Source of the DNA: Flavobacteriales bacterium
GTDB lineage: Bacteria > Bacteroidota > Bacteroidia > Flavobacteriales > Flavobacteriaceae
Length of the DNA: 64,000 nt
Direction: 5' to 3'
NCBI GenBank assembly: GCA_038202695.1
Contig: JBBRET010000011.1
Coordinates: forward strand, 6,544 to 70,543
Within the stretch, counting starts at the first letter, position 1; each line of letters opens with the position of its first letter. Both the position numbers and the translations under genes were made by a program. The notes below the pieces were generated by a model, which worked only from the letters and a program-made list of their open reading frames with translations, did no database searches and was not told the origin of the DNA. Shown here in pieces: positions 16,622 to 63,873 of the stretch.

Positions 16622-16649
16622 TATTAAGTTAGGGTTGATTTTGTTACCT
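16622..16649 (-). promoter_or_regulatory. Putative ECF-sigma promoter GGTAAC-N16-TAATAT
   Basis: Same motif and spacing at 17037-17064 and 17133-17160. Confidence 0.6.
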
Positions 16650-17037: not shown

Positions 17038-17064
17038 TATCAATTCGTGTTGTAATTTGTTACC
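17037..17064 (-). promoter_or_regulatory. Putative ECF-sigma promoter GGTAAC-N16-TGATAT
   Basis: Minus strand reads GGGTAACAAATTACAACACGAATTGATATAAC. Confidence 0.6.
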
Positions 17065-17132: not shown

Positions 17133-17160
17133 ATATAAATTGTGTTACCCATTTGTTACC
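17133..17160 (-). promoter_or_regulatory. Putative ECF-sigma promoter GGTAAC-N16-TTATAT, with a second GGGTAAC 11 bp away
   Basis: Minus strand reads GGGGTAACAAATGGGTAACACAATTTATATATC. Confidence 0.5.
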
Positions 17161-17205
17161 CCATTTCTATATTTATTTTTAAATTAGCCCATAAATAAGG
17201 TAGTT

Positions 17206-54506: not shown

Positions 54507-56243
54507 TTATCTAATAACCAATTTTCTCGAAGCAGTTTTTCCATCTTCTGTAATGTTTACAATGTAAACACCAGCGTGTAAACCAGCAACATTGACTGCA
54601 TTGTCAGCAGTAGTTGTGTTTAAAACTTTTTTGCCTAAAACGTCATAAACAGTAATTGTTTTTTCAGCATTGGCTGCAGTTTCGATAAATAACGTTCCGT
54701 TAGAAACTGGATTTGGATACATTTTTAGACCAGTGATTGCATTGTTTTGGCTCACTCCTAATAAACCAGCGATTGTAGTTGTGATTTTTAATTCATCAAC
54801 AGTAATTGTTGGAGTAGTTGTTGCAGTATCTTGTCTTAACAAAAATCCTCCTAATGTAGTAATAGCAGTTGTTGGAGCATCTGTTAAATCAGCAGGTGTC
54901 GCAAATGTAAATGAAGCAAGAGTTGGGTTAAACCAAGCGCTTAATGTATTTCCAGTAAAGTCATACCCTAAAACAACACAAACTACATCACCAACATTGA
55001 ATAATGTTGCAGCATAATTAGTTGTAGTAGTTCCTGAAGTTAATCCAAGTTGGTATTGAGTTCCTACTTTTTGGATGAATAATCTAGCTTTGAAGTTATT
55101 AAAAACACCATCAGTTAAAACTGCAAAATAAGTTTGCGTTCCATCAACAGTCACGTTTGCATAATCAGTTACATTAATCAAGAATCTTGCATATAATCCA
55201 CCTTCTGCACTTGTAGTTGCAGTAAAAGGGGTGTGACATTCAATACCAGTTCCAGAAAAAGAAACTGAATTTCCTGACGAAGAAATTCCCGTATAGTTTA
55301 AGCTTCCTGCGACAGTAAGAATATTATCTCCTGTATTACCATTAGACCAAGTTTGTAAACTTCCTAATGAAGTTCCATTTGCATAAGGGAAACTTTCATT
55401 GTAAGGTAATGCATTAACGGGTTTACAATCTACAGCGTTTACAGCATTAGCAGTGTAAGAACAAGCGCCTTTTGTTATGCTCAAAGTAAAACCTGTACCT
55501 TCCGTAACTCCACTAACAACAATGTTACCTGCAGCAGTAGTAGCAGGGTTATCGCCGCCAACAGTTCCTGATGAAGGAGAAAATGTATAAGCACCAGCAG
55601 TACCGCCAGTGTAAGGAATAGTAACCGAGTAAGTGTCTAAACCAAAAGTAACAGCGTCGCAAGCGGTTGTTGGATTTCCCAAGACTAAATTACATGATGG
55701 GTCAAAATTGAATACTCTAACGTCGTCAATTCTCAATTGAGCTGCAGTAGCTGGTTGTGTAAAACGTAGTGATAAAGAGGTTGTAGAAGGAATTGCAGCA
55801 CTTGCAGTTGTAATTAACTGCCATCCTGCAACACTAGTATAGGTAATAGGAGTCCAGTTTGTAGCATCTGTACTAAATTCTACTATAGGTTGAACAGTTG
55901 CTGTCGCATTTAATCCAAAAGACAATCTTAAGTTAGTTGCAGCAAAAGCAGAGGTATTTATACCATCTATTTGAAAAAACCTTCCAGCAGTATTCGTAAT
56001 AAATACATTTCCACCACCTGAAGCTCCAGAATAACCGCTAGATGCTCCAGTAGTTCTTACGTCAGCAGTTCCTGAATAAGCAATTGGAGAGGAGTTTTGG
56101 AATGTTGCTGGAGCAGTACCAGTAATATACGCTGGGATTAGAGTTGTTCCTGTTGGAACACCCATGTTTTCAGAGTAGATAGTTTGTGCAAAAGACGAAT
56201 AACTAACTACTAATAGAAATAATAAAGAGTAAATTTTTTTCAT
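54507..56243 (-). CDS. T9SS type A-sorted secreted protein with beta-sandwich domains
   Basis: Signal peptide from ATG 56243 (SFA-Q); Thr/Gly-rich beta domains; CTD MYPNPVSNG...VYDVLGK...GVYIV...KLVIR. Confidence 0.88.
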   Translation of the reverse strand: MKKIYSLLFLLVVSYSSFAQTIYSENMGVPTGTTLIPAYITGTAPATFQNSSPIAYSGTADVRTTGASSGYSGASGGGNVFITNTAGRFFQIDGINTSAFAATNLRLSFGLNATATVQPIVEFSTDATNWTPITYTSVAGWQLITTASAAIPSTTSLSLRFTQPATAAQLRIDDVRVFNFDPSCNLVLGNPTTACDAVTFGLDTYSVTIPYTGGTAGAYTFSPSSGTVGGDNPATTAAGNIVVSGVTEGTGFTLSITKGACSYTANAVNAVDCKPVNALPYNESFPYANGTSLGSLQTWSNGNTGDNILTVAGSLNYTGISSSGNSVSFSGTGIECHTPFTATTSAEGGLYARFLINVTDYANVTVDGTQTYFAVLTDGVFNNFKARLFIQKVGTQYQLGLTSGTTTTNYAATLFNVGDVVCVVLGYDFTGNTLSAWFNPTLASFTFATPADLTDAPTTAITTLGGFLLRQDTATTTPTITVDELKITTTIAGLLGVSQNNAITGLKMYPNPVSNGTLFIETAANAEKTITVYDVLGKKVLNTTTADNAVNVAGLHAGVYIVNITEDGKTASRKLVIR

Positions 56244-56347
56244 TTTTTTAAATTTATTTAGCCTACAAATATAAGTACAAATTTCATTTGTGGAAAATAA
56301 AGACTGTAAAAAAATGATTAATTTAAAGTTAAAAAACAAAAAATCAA

Positions 56348-56659
56348 CTATCTGACAATTAGTTTTCTAGTGGCTGTAGTATCGCCTTCGGTAATTTTAA
56401 TAATATAAACTCCTGGTGGAATGGAGGCAATATTTAATTCTCTTGAAGAAATGGTTGTTTGCAATACTTTTTTCCCCAAAACATCAAAAATTAAAACTTC
56501 TTTGTCTAAGCTGGTTTTTGAAGTGATGTAAATTTTACCATTACTGACTGGGTTAGGATAGAATCCTAAAGACTCGCCTTGTGGTCTTCCTTCTTGGGCT
56601 AGGCCTAAGAAAGAAAAAGCAAGAAAAAATAGAATAATATGAAAGTAGTTTTTACGCAT
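56348..56659 (-). CDS. Small T9SS cargo consisting almost only of a CTD
   Basis: Signal peptide from ATG 56659 (GLA-Q), about 10 residues, then FYPNPVSNG...FDVLGK...GVYII...KLIVR. Confidence 0.8.
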   Translation of the reverse strand: MRKNYFHIILFFLAFSFLGLAQEGRPQGESLGFYPNPVSNGKIYITSKTSLDKEVLIFDVLGKKVLQTTISSRELNIASIPPGVYIIKITEGDTTATRKLIVR

Positions 56660-56718
56660 CTTAACAATTTGGTTGTTACAAATATACACAAATTTATATT
56701 TCAAATACTGTACCAAAA

Positions 56719-56777: not shown

Positions 56778-57971
56778 TTACAATCCAATAGCCCAGTTAG
56801 CAGCCCAGGTTGGCGCAGTAGCTCCACTTCCAGCACCAGTTGCTGTTGTTGTTTCAGCCGCAACTGCTGTTACATCGGCGCTAATACCAGAAGTTGCTGG
56901 TGGTATAGCTGTAGCTTTACCCTTAGTTTTGTTCGTTACATCATTAAAAGTAACATTTGTTCCTTTTAGTGCAGTTCCAACTCCAGCTATTGTTTCATCA
57001 TGCTCAACATCAAAACCTGTTGCAAAACCAGTTAAGTATACGTTTGTAAAAATCCCTCTAGTGCCTCGTCTTAACTTTAACCCTTGATTTTCTGCATATA
57101 TCGCAGAACTTGCAGTACTTCCAGGTCCTACTAAAGTTAAGTTAGTGATTGTAGGATTAGCTATTGGGGTATTAGCAAATCCAAATTCGTAGTTGTCTGC
57201 CTCAATACCTCTATTTCCTTTTCCGAAAGAAATTTTACCATACCAATTAGTGTTTGTTCCATTCCAACCTTCTGTCCAGTCAAATTGGTCGTCTTCGTTC
57301 CCAAAAGAAACTAAGTTCGAAGTGTTTACAGTTCCACCGAAGAATTCGAAACCATCATCTGATCCATGGTAACATTGTACATATTCAAATGTTGTTCCAG
57401 AACCTACTCCAAATAAAGACACTCCATTAAATTCTTTCACTGAACTAAAGTTAGCACCAGTATATTCTAATCTTAAATATCTAATAGAACCTGAATTATC
57501 ATTAGATATAGTTCCACCATATGTTAAATCAGCCACTTCTGATTGAGCAGTAGAAGTTCCACCTGAAACTGTATTTATCGGTGCTTTACCACAAATTACC
57601 AATCCGCCCCAATCTCCTGGGGTTTGAACAGCATTTCCGCTTGTAAATATAACTGGGTTTGAAGCTGTTCCGTTAACAAATATTTTTCCGCCTTGAGCAA
57701 CAGCTATGTAAGCTCCAGTTCCACCAGTTGCTTCTATCACAGTTCCAGCCGGTATAGTTAAACTTGCACCATCACCTATGATAAGTGCTCCAGTCAAGTT
57801 GTAAACAATGTTGTCATTTAAAATAATTTCACCGTCAGCAATAGTTCCTTTAAAGTCTGCTGGATTAACAACGAATGAAGAGGATGGTGTATCATCAGAT
57901 GTTGAACACCCAATAAATAAGCTAGCAGTTATAGCTAAAAGTCCAAATAATTTTACGATTGAATTTTTCAT
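56778..57971 (-). CDS. Beta-helix-like lipoprotein partner of the TonB-dependent receptor (not SusD)
   Basis: Lipobox LFIGC; GASLTIPAGTVI, GDWGGLVICGKAPIN, DDGFEFFGG, DDQFDWTEG, GIEADN repeats. Confidence 0.8.
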   Translation of the reverse strand: MKNSIVKLFGLLAITASLFIGCSTSDDTPSSSFVVNPADFKGTIADGEIILNDNIVYNLTGALIIGDGASLTIPAGTVIEATGGTGAYIAVAQGGKIFVNGTASNPVIFTSGNAVQTPGDWGGLVICGKAPINTVSGGTSTAQSEVADLTYGGTISNDNSGSIRYLRLEYTGANFSSVKEFNGVSLFGVGSGTTFEYVQCYHGSDDGFEFFGGTVNTSNLVSFGNEDDQFDWTEGWNGTNTNWYGKISFGKGNRGIEADNYEFGFANTPIANPTITNLTLVGPGSTASSAIYAENQGLKLRRGTRGIFTNVYLTGFATGFDVEHDETIAGVGTALKGTNVTFNDVTNKTKGKATAIPPATSGISADVTAVAAETTTATGAGSGATAPTWAANWAIGL

Positions 57972-58006: not shown

Positions 58007-58101
58007 CAAATTTGGATTTTTTAGATTTGTTAGGCGTTAAGTAATTGTGATTGTTTGATTAACAAAATCCTATCTAACTATTAATTTAATGTTTCGTATG
58101 T
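58007..58101 (-). promoter_or_regulatory. Degenerate -7 element plus 11-bp-periodic pho-box-like array
   Basis: CAAATTTG at 58007; units at 58036 GTTAA, 58047 GTGAT, 58058 ATTAA, 58080 ATTAA, 58091 GTTTC. Confidence 0.45.
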
Positions 58102-58115
58102 TAATAAAAAGGGGT

Positions 58116-58156
58116 TTAATAATAAAGAGCAGTCACCGACTGCTCTTTATTATTAA
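58116..58156 (-). terminator. Strong hairpin between the TonB receptor and lipoprotein genes
   Basis: TTAATAATAAAGAGCAGTC-ACC-GACTGCTCTTTATTATTAA, perfect 19-bp arms. Confidence 0.85.
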
Positions 58157-58170
58157 AATTGTACAAAATA

Positions 58171-60921
58171 TTAAAACTGATAGTTTACACCTAAGCTTAG
58201 TGTAGCGCCTCTTTTGTATGAAAGAACATTTACATCAGCACTACTGTTTTCCTGAACTCTGTTAATTGTTGGGTTTAAAAGATTTTTGGCAACTAATCCT
58301 AATCCAAGATTCTTGTTTAGTTTTACTTTTGTAATAAAATCTAATGACCCAAATGCTTTGTCTACCTGATTTCCTCTGTTGTTTGTTCCAATTGAATAAA
58401 CTCTGTCTGAAAATTGGCTGAAGGCGATTGTGGTGGTCAAGTTGCTTTCTTTGTTATTCCATTCAGAAAGGAATGAAATATCAGCATTTAATAATAAATC
58501 AGATGCACCAGTTAATTTACTTTCCTTGTTGGTAAAAGCAACATTATAATCAGTTTCTTTAATTACTTTAGATGAATTTAATTCTTGATTACTGTAGAGA
58601 TAAGATGCGTTTATACCAGCAGAAAGTTTTTTAGCATTTCCTTCACTAAAGTTAAATAGCACTTTTCTGTACTCAACTTCGGCTCCTGCTACATAACCAT
58701 AATCTCCGGTGTTCACATAAGAAATGTCATTGGTTGACGAAACAATAGTTACTTCGTTTATTGGATTTAAAATATATTTTCCGAATGCTGTTATCGAAAC
58801 TAGTTCCTCGCTTTTTGGAAACATTTCCCATTTGATGTCTACATTATAATCGTCAGACTCATATAAATTTGGATTACCAATTTTAGACTCATTTACTTCT
58901 TCATAAATAAACAAAGCTCTTTCTTTAAACTGCGGTAAGGTATAGGTTTTACTAAATCCGAAACGTAAATTTTGTTTTTCGTTCAATTCATATTTTAAAA
59001 TCAAACTCGGCAAAAAAGCTATTTTATCCAATTCATCTTGACCACCATTAGGATCTAATGAAGTGTTCCATTGCACTTTTTGCAATAAATATTCTCCTCT
59101 TAAACCCAATACAGCTGTTACTTTATTGAACTTGTATTCAGTATTTAAATAACCGCCATTTACAAATAAATCACCTTCATAAAATTGCGGATTAGTTGCT
59201 CCCGGAGCATTCGAATTACCTCTGAAAGTAGAAATTTGAAAGAAACCATTATTGTAATTTTGTTGATTAAAAAACAAATCTAAATTATCAATGTCTACGA
59301 TATCTCCAGAATTAGCATTGCTTGGTTTGAAATTAAATTGTGTTGCTTCAAAATTTCTTTTCTTGATTTTTGCAGAGTAACCTGCAGTGAATTTACCTTT
59401 AAAATCACCATCTGCATTTTTGTTGAATTTGTAATCAAAAGATAAATTGGTTGCCACTTCTGTTTCATCTAGTTTTTGGAAATACCGGTGATTGTTTGCT
59501 GCAGATTGCCCCAAAAGTATATAGCCACCGGTAGGTTGTAGGTTTAAAGTGTTTTGGGTTCTGTCTGGCTGATCTCCTGTAATGGTGTTATAGGAAACGC
59601 CCCAATTGAATTTTGAACGTTCTGAAAATTTATGATCACCCAATAATTGATTTATCCACAGAGTGTTTTTGTCGTATTTGTTTCTGCGGATGAAACCATT
59701 ACCATCATCGCCACCATCCACAAAATATCCTGTATATTCTTCTTTAGAAAGTGCTGCTGTATTGATGAATATGGAATTAAAATTGATTTTATTATTGCTG
59801 TTTATTTTGTAACCAATATTAGCCATTCCCGTAAAATTGGTTGAATAACTCATTGCGGTATAATCATTAAAATCTTTATTGGCAACTCCACTTCCGTTGA
59901 TGCTTTTTACGCTACCATCGGTAATAGAATTGTATTCATTGCTATAATTGGCAGTAGCAAAAAGATTTAATTTTCCTTCCGATCCAATATCGAAATTTTT
60001 TCCTCCTGATAGTCCGATTGTACCAGCAAACGGATTTTTGCTTTCTAGTTGTAAGGTGTTAAATCCATAAGAAGTTAATGGGTTATTTGGAATAGAAGTG
60101 GTGCTAAATCCAAAGCTATTATATCCTTTTTGTAGTTTGAAGTTATCTTCTGCAATAGAATTGGTGTTGATTTTAGAACCAATCTCCAACTTCAAAAATC
60201 CTTTGCCTTTATAATCTTTAGAAATAATGTCAACGTTTCCTCCAGCAAAATCTCCAAATAACCTACTTGTGTAAACTTTATCTATCGAAACCGATTCTAC
60301 GATATCTGTTGAGAAAATTTCCAAATTTAAATTCTTCTTTTCTGGATCTTGCGACGGAATTGGCAATCCGTTCATTGTAGTAGAGTTGTATCGGTCGCCC
60401 AATCCTCTTACAAATATATTTCCAGTACCTTCTTGTTTGGTTATCCCAGTCGTTTTAGTCACAGCTGTTGCAACATCACTAACTCCTTTTCTTGACATTT
60501 CTTGAGCGCCAATACTTTGTTTAATCTCAACTGCTTTTTTTTGTTCTAACAATAAAGCGGTTTCTTTTTCACGACTCACAGTGTTCTGAATCACTACATC
60601 CTTCAACTGATAGCTTCCTGAACCCAACGCTTTATTTAAGGTAATAGTTTCTCCAGCCTTTACTTCTACTTTTTCTTCTACTGTTTCATAGCCTAAAAAG
60701 CTAAATTGTACAATGTAACTACCAGCATCAACTGTAATAGAATATTTCCCGGTTTCATCAGTTGTTACTCCGATAGTGGTTCCTTTAATAATCACGTTAG
60801 CAAAAGGCAGTGATTCATTGTTTACATCTTTGTCCGTCAAAACCCCAATAATCGTTCCTTTGTTTTGTGCAAAACCAAGAACAGTGACCAATAAAAAAGT
60901 GAAAATTAGTTTAAATTTCAT
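58171..60921 (-). CDS. TonB-dependent receptor
   Basis: Signal peptide from ATG 60921; N-terminal carboxypeptidase-regulatory-like domain; plug VRGLGDRYN...KVYTSRLFGDFAGGNVDI; barrel ending NYQF. Confidence 0.92.
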   Translation of the reverse strand: MKFKLIFTFLLVTVLGFAQNKGTIIGVLTDKDVNNESLPFANVIIKGTTIGVTTDETGKYSITVDAGSYIVQFSFLGYETVEEKVEVKAGETITLNKALGSGSYQLKDVVIQNTVSREKETALLLEQKKAVEIKQSIGAQEMSRKGVSDVATAVTKTTGITKQEGTGNIFVRGLGDRYNSTTMNGLPIPSQDPEKKNLNLEIFSTDIVESVSIDKVYTSRLFGDFAGGNVDIISKDYKGKGFLKLEIGSKINTNSIAEDNFKLQKGYNSFGFSTTSIPNNPLTSYGFNTLQLESKNPFAGTIGLSGGKNFDIGSEGKLNLFATANYSNEYNSITDGSVKSINGSGVANKDFNDYTAMSYSTNFTGMANIGYKINSNNKINFNSIFINTAALSKEEYTGYFVDGGDDGNGFIRRNKYDKNTLWINQLLGDHKFSERSKFNWGVSYNTITGDQPDRTQNTLNLQPTGGYILLGQSAANNHRYFQKLDETEVATNLSFDYKFNKNADGDFKGKFTAGYSAKIKKRNFEATQFNFKPSNANSGDIVDIDNLDLFFNQQNYNNGFFQISTFRGNSNAPGATNPQFYEGDLFVNGGYLNTEYKFNKVTAVLGLRGEYLLQKVQWNTSLDPNGGQDELDKIAFLPSLILKYELNEKQNLRFGFSKTYTLPQFKERALFIYEEVNESKIGNPNLYESDDYNVDIKWEMFPKSEELVSITAFGKYILNPINEVTIVSSTNDISYVNTGDYGYVAGAEVEYRKVLFNFSEGNAKKLSAGINASYLYSNQELNSSKVIKETDYNVAFTNKESKLTGASDLLLNADISFLSEWNNKESNLTTTIAFSQFSDRVYSIGTNNRGNQVDKAFGSLDFITKVKLNKNLGLGLVAKNLLNPTINRVQENSSADVNVLSYKRGATLSLGVNYQF

Positions 60922-60939
60922 TTTATTTAAATTTTGGTG

Positions 60940-61023
60940 CAAAGAAACCACTGTTATGTAAAGGTCACGTTACTCCATTATTACCATTTTGTTCTTTAAC
61001 CATTACCAAATTGTTAACAGATT
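60940..61023 (-). promoter_or_regulatory. Degenerate -7 element plus five 11-bp direct repeats (pho-box-like)
   Basis: CAAAGAAA at 60940; units at 60969 GTTAC, 60980 ATTAC, 60991 GTTCT, 61002 ATTAC, 61013 GTTAA. Confidence 0.6.
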
Positions 61024-61107
61024 AAATTACGGTTAACTCCAATCTGGTTTATCAAATCATTTTGTATTATCTTTACATTTACATCCACAAAAACAATTGT
61101 GTCCATT

Positions 61108-61791
61108 ATGAAAAAGAAAGACATTAAGATTTTACTAGTAGATGATGAGCAAGATATCCTAGAGATTGTAGGATATAATCTTTCTCAAGAAGGGTACCAA
61201 ATAGTAACTGCTACTAATGGGAAAGAAGCAATAGCTAAAGCCAAAAAAGAATTGCCTCAACTGATCATTATGGATGTAATGATGCCTGAAATGGATGGAA
61301 TGGAAGCTTGTGAAAACATTAGGAAACTTCCCGAATTGAGTAACGTAATCATTACCTTTTTGACCGCAAGAAGTGAAGATTATTCTCAAGTAGCCGGATT
61401 TGATGCTGGTGCCGATGATTATATCACAAAACCAATCAAACCTAAATTATTAGTCAGTAAGGTGAAAGCACTGCTACGCCGTTTAAAAAGTGACGAACAC
61501 GATTCTGAAACTTTAAATGTTGGTGGAATCGAAATCAACCGAGAAGAATATAAAATCATCAAAGACAACAAAGAAATTATTTTACCTCGAAAAGAATTTG
61601 AACTGTTTTATCTTTTAGCCTCTAAACCCGGTAAAGTTTTTAAACGCGAAGAGATTTTAGATAAAGTTTGGGGTAACGAAGTAATTGTGGGCGGAAGAAC
61701 CATTGATGTACATATTAGAAAACTCCGCGAAAAAATTGGTGATGAACTATTTAAAACCATCAAAGGAGTCGGCTATAAATTAGAAGTGTAA
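61108..61791 (+). CDS. OmpR/PhoB-family response regulator
   Basis: LLVDDE, IMDVMMP, ADDYITKP, winged helix RTIDVHIRKLREK...TIKGVGY; start placed at ATG 61108. Confidence 0.95.
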   Translation: MKKKDIKILLVDDEQDILEIVGYNLSQEGYQIVTATNGKEAIAKAKKELPQLIIMDVMMPEMDGMEACENIRKLPELSNVIITFLTARSEDYSQVAGFDAGADDYITKPIKPKLLVSKVKALLRRLKSDEHDSETLNVGGIEINREEYKIIKDNKEIILPRKEFELFYLLASKPGKVFKREEILDKVWGNEVIVGGRTIDVHIRKLREKIGDELFKTIKGVGYKLEV

Positions 61792-62835
61792 ATGAAATTA
61801 AAATTCAAGAAAACTTACAGATTTGCTTTAGTTTCTACCGCATACATTACCGTTTTTGCCACAGGTTTTCTTGCTGTTTTGTTGTGGTTTTTTCATGAAT
61901 TTTCAATGCCAATTCTTATAGTCTTTGCCATTTGTATGGCAACGTTTTCCTTTTTTGTTATTCAATATCGCGTGGAACGATTTATTTATAGGAGGGTAAA
62001 AAAAATCTACGATGATGTATCGCTTTTAGAATCAACTTCTTTCCGAAATCAACCGATTACTACCGACATGGAAACTTTAACCAAACAGGTCAAAAAGTTT
62101 GCAACCGATAAAAAACTCGAAATCGAAACCTTAAAAGTGCGTGAGGAGTACCGAAGAGAATTCTTAGGCAATGTTTCCCACGAACTCAAAACGCCATTAT
62201 TCACAGTGCAAGGCTATCTTTCTACTTTGATAGATGGTGCAATAAATGATAAAAGTGTCCGTAAAAAGTATCTTGATAGAGCCGAAAAAGGTGTGGAGCG
62301 ACTCATTTATATTGTGGAAGATTTAGACATGATTTCTAAACTTGAAATGGGCGATGTGAATTTAGAGTTGTCCAAATTTAACATAGTCGAATTGGTACAA
62401 AGTGTTTTCGATTTACTCGAAATGACGGCCGACAAAAAGAACATTATTTTGATGTTTGATCGCAAATATAGCCGACCTGTAACTGTTTTTGCCGATCAGG
62501 ATAAAATCCAACAAGTACTTTCTAATCTGATTATGAATTCCATAAAATACGGAAAAGAAAATGGTACAACAGAGGTAACCATAGAAGATCTAATCGACGA
62601 CAAAATAATTGTAAGAATTCGAGATAATGGAGAAGGAATTGAGAAGCAAAATATCTCACGTTTGTTTGAACGTTTTTTCAGAGTTGATAAAAGTGGCGCG
62701 CGAAGTGAAGGTGGTTCTGGTCTGGGACTTTCCATTGTGAAGCATATCATAGAAGCGCACGGCGAAAAAATCTACATCGAAAGCGAATTTGGTAAAGGCT
62801 CAGAGTTTTCATTCACCCTCGAAAAGGATCAATAA
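61792..62835 (+). CDS. PhoR-like sensor histidine kinase
   Basis: Two N-terminal TM segments with no periplasmic domain; NVSHELKTP, NLIMNSIKY, DNGEGI, RFFRVD, GSGLGL. Confidence 0.93.
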   Translation: MKLKFKKTYRFALVSTAYITVFATGFLAVLLWFFHEFSMPILIVFAICMATFSFFVIQYRVERFIYRRVKKIYDDVSLLESTSFRNQPITTDMETLTKQVKKFATDKKLEIETLKVREEYRREFLGNVSHELKTPLFTVQGYLSTLIDGAINDKSVRKKYLDRAEKGVERLIYIVEDLDMISKLEMGDVNLELSKFNIVELVQSVFDLLEMTADKKNIILMFDRKYSRPVTVFADQDKIQQVLSNLIMNSIKYGKENGTTEVTIEDLIDDKIIVRIRDNGEGIEKQNISRLFERFFRVDKSGARSEGGSGLGLSIVKHIIEAHGEKIYIESEFGKGSEFSFTLEKDQ

Positions 62836-63873
62836 CTGCTTCCAATGCACGTCTTTTTTGATTTGCGGTATACCTTGATATAATTTAACATCTTTCAAAT
62901 CAGTAATGTTGAAATCCTCTTGTTTTGCATACGGCGCAAAGCCATTTCTCTTTAATCTTTTAGCCAAATATTCCTGCTCAAACTGCCCTGGTGTTGGAAT
63001 GAAAAATGCTTTCTTTTTGAGTTTTGCCAAATCCATTATCGTGGTATATCCGGAACGACAAAGAACCATTTCACTTTCGTTAAAAGCCTTTTCTAGTGCT
63101 CCAGAGGTCATGAAATTGTAATAGGTAACATGTTCAGCGATTTCTATTTTTTGTTCAGGCTCTATAACGCCCTTTATAAAAATGACATTTCCGTCAAACA
63201 AGCGAATTTCATTTTTTAGTTTTTGCTCCAAATAAGTACGCTGAGGTTCTGGTCCTGAAAGAACAACCATTAAATCGTATTTCATTGGTAACGTCTCTTT
63301 TTCTAGTCGACTTAACGGACCTAGATATCTCAGATTCAACTTGCTTTTTTTTAAATGTCCTAGTTTCCCCGTTAAATTAGGTTGTCCTTCGGCATCTGGA
63401 ATCCAGCATTCTGTAAATTTTTTGATAAAATGCTGGTGCAGTTTGCTTGAAATCCAAGTTGTTTTTCCAGACAATACAGTAAGTTGATGTGTGATAAAAA
63501 CACTCGGAATCTTTTTACTGTAAACACCTAAGCGATTATCTGAAATGATTCCGTAAAGATTGAACTCTGTAATCCATTTTTTGACGATTTTCTTTTCTGT
63601 AAAGATGGCATCAATCATATTTGGACTATTTTTAATTAGTTTCCATTTAAAATCACCGCCATTTTTGGCATATTCAATGTTGTATGTAGGTAGTGTTAAG
63701 GCTTGTAAATGCGGAAATTCCTTTTGAAGAATTTGCAATGCTGCACCATCAGAAGCAATTATAGGGGTAAACCCATTTTTTTCCAATTCATGAATAATCG
63801 GAATACAGCGCGTGGCGTGACCTAAACCCCAATTTAAAGGGGCAACCAAAATGTTTCTTACTAAATTTTTCAA
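62809..63873 (-). CDS. Glycosyltransferase (GT-B, GT28 C-terminal-like)
   Basis: LNWGLGHATR, CRSGYTT, PTPGQFEQ. Confidence 0.85.
   Translation of the reverse strand: MKNLVRNILVAPLNWGLGHATRCIPIIHELEKNGFTPIIASDGAALQILQKEFPHLQALTLPTYNIEYAKNGGDFKWKLIKNSPNMIDAIFTEKKIVKKWITEFNLYGIISDNRLGVYSKKIPSVFITHQLTVLSGKTTWISSKLHQHFIKKFTECWIPDAEGQPNLTGKLGHLKKSKLNLRYLGPLSRLEKETLPMKYDLMVVLSGPEPQRTYLEQKLKNEIRLFDGNVIFIKGVIEPEQKIEIAEHVTYYNFMTSGALEKAFNESEMVLCRSGYTTIMDLAKLKKKAFFIPTPGQFEQEYLAKRLKRNGFAPYAKQEDFNITDLKDVKLYQGIPQIKKDVHWKQLLILFEGE

Follow-up and report, generated by a model that had tools for sequence, protein, structure and literature searches.

Why should a short spacer between a TonB-dependent receptor gene and a divergently transcribed regulator gene carry a run of phased repeats, and which protein would read them, for the benefit of which gene? 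The spacer in question (60922-61107, 186 bp, 28% G+C) separates a receptor gene on the minus strand from a response-regulator gene on the plus strand, and lies within the window, that is, the whole 64,000-nucleotide stretch of DNA analysed. The original prediction took the repeats to be a probable binding array for the adjacent OmpR/PhoB regulator and a candidate Bacteroidetes pho box from which the regulon could be predicted. The features on which our answer rests are collected in Table 1.

Table 1. Features of the phoB-receptor locus, of the second array and of the DUF47-pitA operon; positions are those of the window unless a contig is named
Feature	Position	Strand	Sequence or remark
FII-like surface lipoprotein gene, receptor partner	56778..57971	-	orthologues adjoin phoBR in relatives; PMC8115612
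Second Pho-box promoter, of the lipoprotein gene	58007..58068	+	-7 box, 10-nt gap, four units
-7 box of second promoter	58007-14	+	CAAATTTG
Second array, unit	58025-35	+	weak
Second array, unit	58036-46	+	GTTAAGTAATT
Second array, unit	58047-57	+	
Second array, unit	58058-68	+	ATTAACAAAAT
Terminator-like hairpin, receptor/lipoprotein intergenic	58120..58152	-	from sequence
TonB-dependent receptor gene	58171..60921	-	CarboxypepD_reg, Plug, barrel (Pfam); counterpart of Pi-induced Fjoh_0545 (PMC8115612)
Sigma-A -7 box of receptor promoter	60940..60947	-	TTTCTTTG; consensus TAnnTTTG
Gap from -7 box to first unit	60948..60957	-	10 nt
U0, promoter-proximal sixth unit, in phase	60958..60968	+	GTAAAGGTCAC
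U1	60969-79	+	GTTACTCCATT
U2	60980-90	+	ATTACCATTTT
U3	60991-61001	+	GTTCTTTAACC; starts GTTC, breaks RTTA
U4	61002-12	+	ATTACCAAATT
U5	61013-23	+	GTTAACAGATT
Conserved block, two units in phoB direction	61021..61037	+	ATTAAATTACGGTTAAC; TTAAA at 61022, TTAAC at 61033, 11 bp apart
Candidate phoB -7 boxes	61057..61075	+	in conserved block TTTTGTATTATCTTTACA
First candidate box	61057-64	+	TCATTTTG
Second candidate box	61068-75	+	TATCTTTA
phoB-type response regulator gene	61108..61791	+	REC domain and winged-helix Trans_reg_C
phoR-type histidine kinase gene	61792..62835	+	two N-terminal hydrophobic stretches, HisKA, HATPase_c
Glycosyltransferase gene (PF04101)	62809..63873	-	counterpart of Fjoh_0541
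DUF47(PhoU_div)-PitA operon, same genome	C19:35548-37628		TACATTTG, 10 nt, GTTAAGTGAAT ATTAACTGGTC

The regulator, its kinase and their neighbours

The regulator matches PF00072 with 103.9 bits and PF00486 with 78.8 bits, PhoB models are its top NCBIfam matches, and among the genes of the genome it is the most PhoB-like. Its scores lie below the PhoB equivalog cut-offs (217.3 against 296.2 for TIGR02154, and 209.1 against 270 for NF053854, the Bacteroidetes PhoB model), and no gene in the genome reaches such a cut-off. One orthologue was found in each of 24 out of 24 genomes of the same genus, at 77-98% identity, and the gene is also present in most other families of the order. The kinase matches PF00512 and PF02518 and begins with two hydrophobic segments joined by a very short loop (residues 10-58, judged by eye), which we read as membrane helices, and this fits a membrane anchor lacking a periplasmic sensor, followed by HisKA and HATPase_c. 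No PAS domain was matched in the kinase with Pfam, and its scores are below the PhoR equivalog cut-offs (231 against 334 for TIGR02966, and 143.6 against 500 for NF053855).

The order of glycosyltransferase (PF04101), kinase, regulator, TonB-dependent receptor and lipoprotein matches, as a neighbour set, Fjoh_0541-0546 of F. johnsoniae, where the cluster named 'PhoBR operon / PUSIV' (Fjoh_0541-0549) has the same order and Pfam content, namely a glycosyltransferase (PF04101), PhoR, PhoB, a TonB-dependent transporter (PF07715, PF13715 and PF14905) and FII (PMC8115612). Upon Pi depletion of F. johnsoniae, the transporter Fjoh_0545 is up by log2 8.0, the FII lipoprotein Fjoh_0546 by log2 9.9 and PhoB, Fjoh_0544, by log2 3.1 or about 8-fold (PMC8115612). 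In three relatives (G004, G006 and G011), porin O/P, pstS and pstC lie directly downstream of phoBR. On the strength of a gene order shared with the PhoBR operon of F. johnsoniae and of the pst and porin neighbours in relatives, we treat the pair as the Flavobacterium PhoBR. The adjacent regulator was thus rightly described as being of the OmpR/PhoB kind, for it is a genus-wide, single-copy, PhoB-type protein whose neighbours match those of the Pi-induced 'phoBR operon' of F. johnsoniae.

The present cluster differs from that of F. johnsoniae in lacking the OprP porin and in having two T9SS-tailed proteins downstream. These proteins, of 122 and 610 aa (54507-56716), carry T9SS C-terminal sorting domains and are encoded on the same strand after the lipoprotein gene; T9SS-tailed, Pi-induced proteins are found in the FI cluster of F. 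johnsoniae, too. The lipoprotein itself has a lipoprotein signal, its gene adjoins that of the TonB receptor, and it gave no Pfam or NCBIfam family match. No array was found in the region upstream of the glycosyltransferase gene.

Architecture and conservation of the array

Between 60969 and 61023, five 11-mers stand in exact 11-bp phase, four of the five starting with RTTA, and a T-rich end is common among them. The units are degenerate and not copies of one another, with little in common beyond RTTA. Of the five exact 11-bp-phased repeats originally described, the positions and the phasing therefore stand, while the exactness does not, and the count rises to six with U0. Autocorrelation within the array is raised at lags of 11, 22 and 33 (0.45, 0.55 and 0.64). 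A repeat search of the array returned one 14-nt pair only, 22 bp apart. Tandem Repeats Finder reported no repeat at the array and an E. coli-type promoter scan found nothing, as might be expected of tools unsuited to degenerate units and to Bacteroidetes promoters, respectively.

The direction of the array also needed to be corrected, because the strand on which it had been read is the bottom strand for the receptor promoter. The core, given before as RTTAC-N4-TT, becomes RTTAA/C, which is TTAAY in the direction of transcription; read toward the receptor gene, a unit is wwwwwCTTAAY, and exactly 10 nt separate the end of the last core from the -7 box. The proximal unit had been placed at 60969-79, overlapping the -33 position, but the unit beside the -7 box is 60958-68, and -33 falls at the boundary of U0 and U1. 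As the flavobacterial sigma-A -7 box spans -12 to -5 (PMC9723704), the receptor transcript would start near 60935 with a leader of about 14 nt, which would place U0 at -33 to -23 and U1 at -44 to -34. No TTTG -33 element was seen at the expected place in the receptor promoter, and the last core, ending exactly 10 nt upstream of the -7 box, suggests that U0 and U1 stand in place of the missing element.

How far could such an array arise by chance? RTTA at no fewer than four of five positions spaced 11 bp apart occurs just once in the 2.86-Mb genome, both strands counted, at 60969-61023; the expectation from resampled intergenic regions with dinucleotide content kept is 0.2 such sites, and the same test returned no site at spacings of 8-10, 12 and 13 bp and three sites at 14 bp. 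By sequence alone the array is only modestly significant, and its weight comes from its position beside phoB and from its conservation in orthologous spacers. When a matrix from other promoters was used, it also scored highest among the five-unit arrays of the genome, at 28.5, the next site beyond the array itself reaching 15.2; in this comparison the RTTA columns are circular, since the units of that matrix had been picked using the first matrix.

About two thirds of the regulator loci contain a divergent receptor gene. All 20 receptor-bearing orthologous spacers have the -7 box (in reverse complement, CAAAGnAA), then exactly 10 nt and then U0, U1 and onward, and when gaps of 9, 10 and 11 nt were compared, 10 nt scored best in every one of the 20 promoters. 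Six phased units are kept in heavily diverged orthologous spacers, the place of U0 being taken by GTAAAG, GTTAA or ATTAA. Among 84 units from 14 diverged orthologous spacers, the base at position 2 is T in 84 of 84, the RTTA core holds nearly all the information, and positions 5-11 are near background. Conservation in orthologous spacers, proposed at the outset as a check, was borne out, with the cores kept, the intervening bases drifting and the layout retained throughout the receptor-bearing set. The name of a Bacteroidetes pho box is too broad, however, as the layout was followed through the genus Flavobacterium and a few other families of Flavobacteriales only.

We propose that the array is very probably a Pho box, in which six 11-bp-phased predicted sites would accommodate three head-to-tail dimers of the adjacent phosphorylated PhoB. 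Under Pi limitation, PhoB~P would bind cooperatively, head to tail, as three dimers, and the bound protein would substitute for recognition of a -33 element and bring RNA polymerase to the weak TTTCTTTG promoter. The TonB receptor would thereby be switched on, and the FII-like lipoprotein would be switched on from its own, similar promoter at 58007-58068. Both binding and activation are what we infer from sequence here.

The same layout at other phosphate promoters

It had been predicted that a matrix scan would lead to phosphate genes, and among the relatives this proved to be so: with a position matrix built from phoB-receptor spacers only, worth about 6 bits per unit, arrays were found upstream of porinO/P-pstS, pstS, pstC, DUF47-pitA and FII/FIII lipoprotein genes, and none at a non-phosphate control gene. 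In other Flavobacterium genomes, the array directly upstream of FIII-like orphan lipoprotein genes is the single best match per 3.7-4 kb locus (16.3-20.4), and in 78 distinct Flavobacterium FIII-like promoters conservation is strongest in the columns of the RTTA cores and of the -7 box, with the same 10-nt gap between them. FIII of F. johnsoniae is induced by log2 11.6 (PMC8115612). Arrays precede porinO/P-pstS with scores of 22.0 and 20.2, pstS with 17.5 and pstC with 21.1 (17.9 in G004), and most of these porin, pstS and pstC promoters have a gap of 10 nt to the -7 box (for example TATTTTTG, TACTTTTG or CACCTTTG), in some cases lengthened by one degenerate unit. A Pho box of its own can stand before each of the porin, pstS and pstC genes (L045 in G011; L017 and L046 in G006; L062, L044 and L029 in G004), which suggests that the pst cluster of these relatives is read from several PhoB-type promoters and not from one.

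Within the genus, the Pho box with the widest conservation is that of DUF47-pitA, a two-unit box of GTTAAG/GTTAAC. At this operon, 16 of 21 non-self orthologues score at least 12, a level found for 0.68% of genes, with a gap of 10 nt in 11 of 23 loci and of 20-21 nt in 8 of 23. The control gene, Metallophos_2 (PlcP-like; C7:39388-39888), has an array in the genome under study, but none of its 23 orthologues scores at least 12, and it was rejected as a conserved target. No arrays were found at PBP_like_2 lipoproteins of the second PstS class, and a search for PhoX (PF05787) in the relatives gave almost no matches.

This recurrence bears on the question of what recognises the units. It is possible in principle that they are sites of a different protein, whether a further OmpR-family regulator or some unknown factor linked to phosphate, and the genome does contain three or four other OmpR-family regulators beside one that falls short of the PhoB equivalog cut-offs. 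We regard this as very unlikely, since the array accompanies the regulator gene in receptor-less loci as well, the recurrent targets are all phosphate-acquisition genes, the regulator occurs throughout the genus in a single copy, just as the motif does at pitA-DUF47, and 11-bp tandem repeats 10 nt from a -10-type element are the signature of a PhoB-type activator. Alternatively, the periodicity might result from the curvature of AT-rich promoter DNA or from shared ancestry, without recognition by any specific protein, as could be argued from the low G+C content of the spacer, from the matches of low-information AT-rich matrices at other spacings and from the 0.2 chance occurrences expected genome-wide for the simple RTTA statistic. 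Such an origin seems scarcely credible, given that the bases between the invariant cores are near-random among species at 77-93% regulator identity and in other families, that non-homologous promoters (pitA-DUF47, pstS and FIII) share the units at the 10-nt offset, and that the control gene lacks them among its orthologues.

In the genome itself, a matrix-only scan is noisy, with spacings of 8 bp and 7 bp also matching in AT-rich spacers, and became sharp once orientation and position were added to the matrix. A three-unit array scoring at least 16, reading away from the gene and lying 15-135 nt from its start was found for 3 of 2363 genes (0.13%), two of which are the receptor and its lipoprotein partner. 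In a composite scan (box, 10-11 nt, units), the top five of 2364 genes were the receptor, the FII lipoprotein, one doubtful site, Metallophos_2 and DUF47-pitA. The second array, that of the lipoprotein gene, lies behind the terminator-like hairpin, and 7 of 15 other FII orthologues, about half, have arrays in the corresponding position, with scores of about 15-18.

The best two-unit matrix match of the genome, GTTACCCATTT GTTACCCCATT at 17144-17165, precedes an ECF-type sigma gene (17207...) and is a false positive of the Pho matrix; TTGTTACC recurs at two paralogous leaders (16642-16649 and 17057-17064). A gene at C10:79800-80663, of RpoD-type sigma-70 kind as judged by eye, has GTTCTGGAAAA GTTACAATTTA GTTACTTTTTT 48 nt upstream, with a score of 14.6 and no canonical box at 10 nt.

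The tblastn search of the genome (E of 1e-3 or better) returned no match to the PstS, PstC and porin O/P that flank phoBR in relatives, and as the genome is 94% complete, absence of the three is probable and not proven. PhoX was not detected in the genome, and its sole PBP_like_2 gene (C8:85736-86218), which runs into the contig end, is of a different class and has no Pho box. The predicted PhoB regulon of this genome appears to be minimal, and the expectation of phosphatases and pst genes in it failed, as it contains neither. In E. coli, the PAS domain of PhoR receives the Pst/PhoU signal. It is conceivable, if unlikely, that in Pst-less flavobacteria the Pi status reaches PhoR through PitA and the PhoU-like DUF47 in a feedback loop, the TonB receptor and FII then being the sole high-affinity, PhoB-driven phosphorus uptake. 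The idea was suggested by the lack of detectable pstS, pstC and porin O/P, by a PhoR without PAS, and by the DUF47-pitA Pho box being the most widely conserved; if true, the loop would be of a kind not yet described.

The phoB side of the spacer and comparison with known operators

While the receptor promoter follows a strict layout, the phoB side of the spacer is less regular. The six units are oriented opposite to phoB transcription, and ATTAAATTACGGTTAAC is kept in nearly all orthologues, including receptor-less loci and those of other families; in receptor-less loci, only U4, U5 and this block remain. A helical-phase rule for the phoB promoter was tried and rejected, the distance from the block to the -7 box being 19-36 nt among species with no clean phasing. 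With units in the 'wrong' direction and so variable a distance, canonical geometry does not explain phoB autoregulation. It is plausible that the phoB-proximal units, together with ATTAAATTACGGTTAAC, mediate autoregulation of phoBR, as phoB is induced 8-fold in F. johnsoniae.

One might go further and regard the array as a PhoB operator that mainly controls phoBR, through repression or feedback, and does not activate the receptor. U4-U5 and the ATTAAAT..GTTAAC block do persist upstream of phoB where there is no receptor, the units are inverted relative to phoB, and an inverted arrangement is repressive in the B. subtilis tagA-tagD spacer. On the other hand, U0-U3 occur only where the receptor is present and stand at a fixed, canonical distance from its -7 box at all 20 loci, and in F. 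johnsoniae the receptor orthologue is induced 250-fold and phoB is induced, not repressed (PMC8115612), which makes control of phoBR as the main role highly improbable.

Read as a Pho box that activates the receptor, the array resembles the E. coli Pho box (CTGTCATAWAWCTGTCAY) in being built of tandem direct repeats with an 11-bp period, in multiples of two units (PMC4415409). Both also adjoin phoBR, which is autoregulated in E. coli, recur at phosphate transport genes and replace an upstream promoter element. The last core of the E. coli Pho box reportedly ends 10 nt upstream of the -10 hexamer, according to Makino and Wanner. The array differs from the E. coli box in its core, which is TTAAY (RTTAA/C on the other strand, in units of RTTA[A/C/T]) and not CTGTCAT; the Pho box consensus differs between lineages (PMC4415409), so that this mismatch bars only an E. 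coli-type sequence and not the operator class. It differs further in being set in a Bacteroidetes sigma-A -33/-7 promoter, with six units spanning a divergent spacer, and in belonging to a genome without detectable pstSCAB and with a kinase without PAS. The PhoP box of B. subtilis consists of direct repeats of TT(A/T/C)ACA with spacers of about 5 nt, several repeats being needed. The Flavobacterium core with its next base, TTAAYA, is nearly that hexamer and the 11-bp period is alike, whereas phylum and promoter type differ. In Caulobacter crescentus, the elpS-TonB receptor operon likewise pairs a Pi-starvation-induced lipoprotein with a TonB-dependent receptor (PMC2996285), there under a proteobacterial Pho box and promoter, and the F lipoproteins are 31-36% identical to Caulobacter ElpS (Lidbury et al., PMC8115612).

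No defined operator of the Pho-box kind in Flavobacterium or Bacteroidetes came to light in a full-text literature search. Lidbury et al. 2021 report expression only, name no operator and do not use the term 'Pho box' (PMC8115612), the B. fragilis PhoB paper has the Pho box as a concept only, and the F. psychrophilum transcription-start atlas gives no PhoB motif. The Flavobacterium Pho-box rule is apparently undescribed, and the type of switch itself is a familiar, conventional one.

In soils, rhizospheres and waters, flavobacteria play a major part in recycling organic phosphorus, yet to our knowledge the regulon that they express under Pi starvation has been described from expression data only. 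The rule of a sigma-A -7 box, 10 nt and 11-bp-phased TTAAY units is usable in any Flavobacterium genome or MAG, where direct PhoB targets can be told apart from genes that respond indirectly, for instance through ECF sigma factors. Defined mutations for probing the abundant, uncharacterised receptor, FII and FIII proteins also follow from it, and it shows how a PhoB-type activator would fit onto the unusual -33/-7 promoters of Bacteroidetes.
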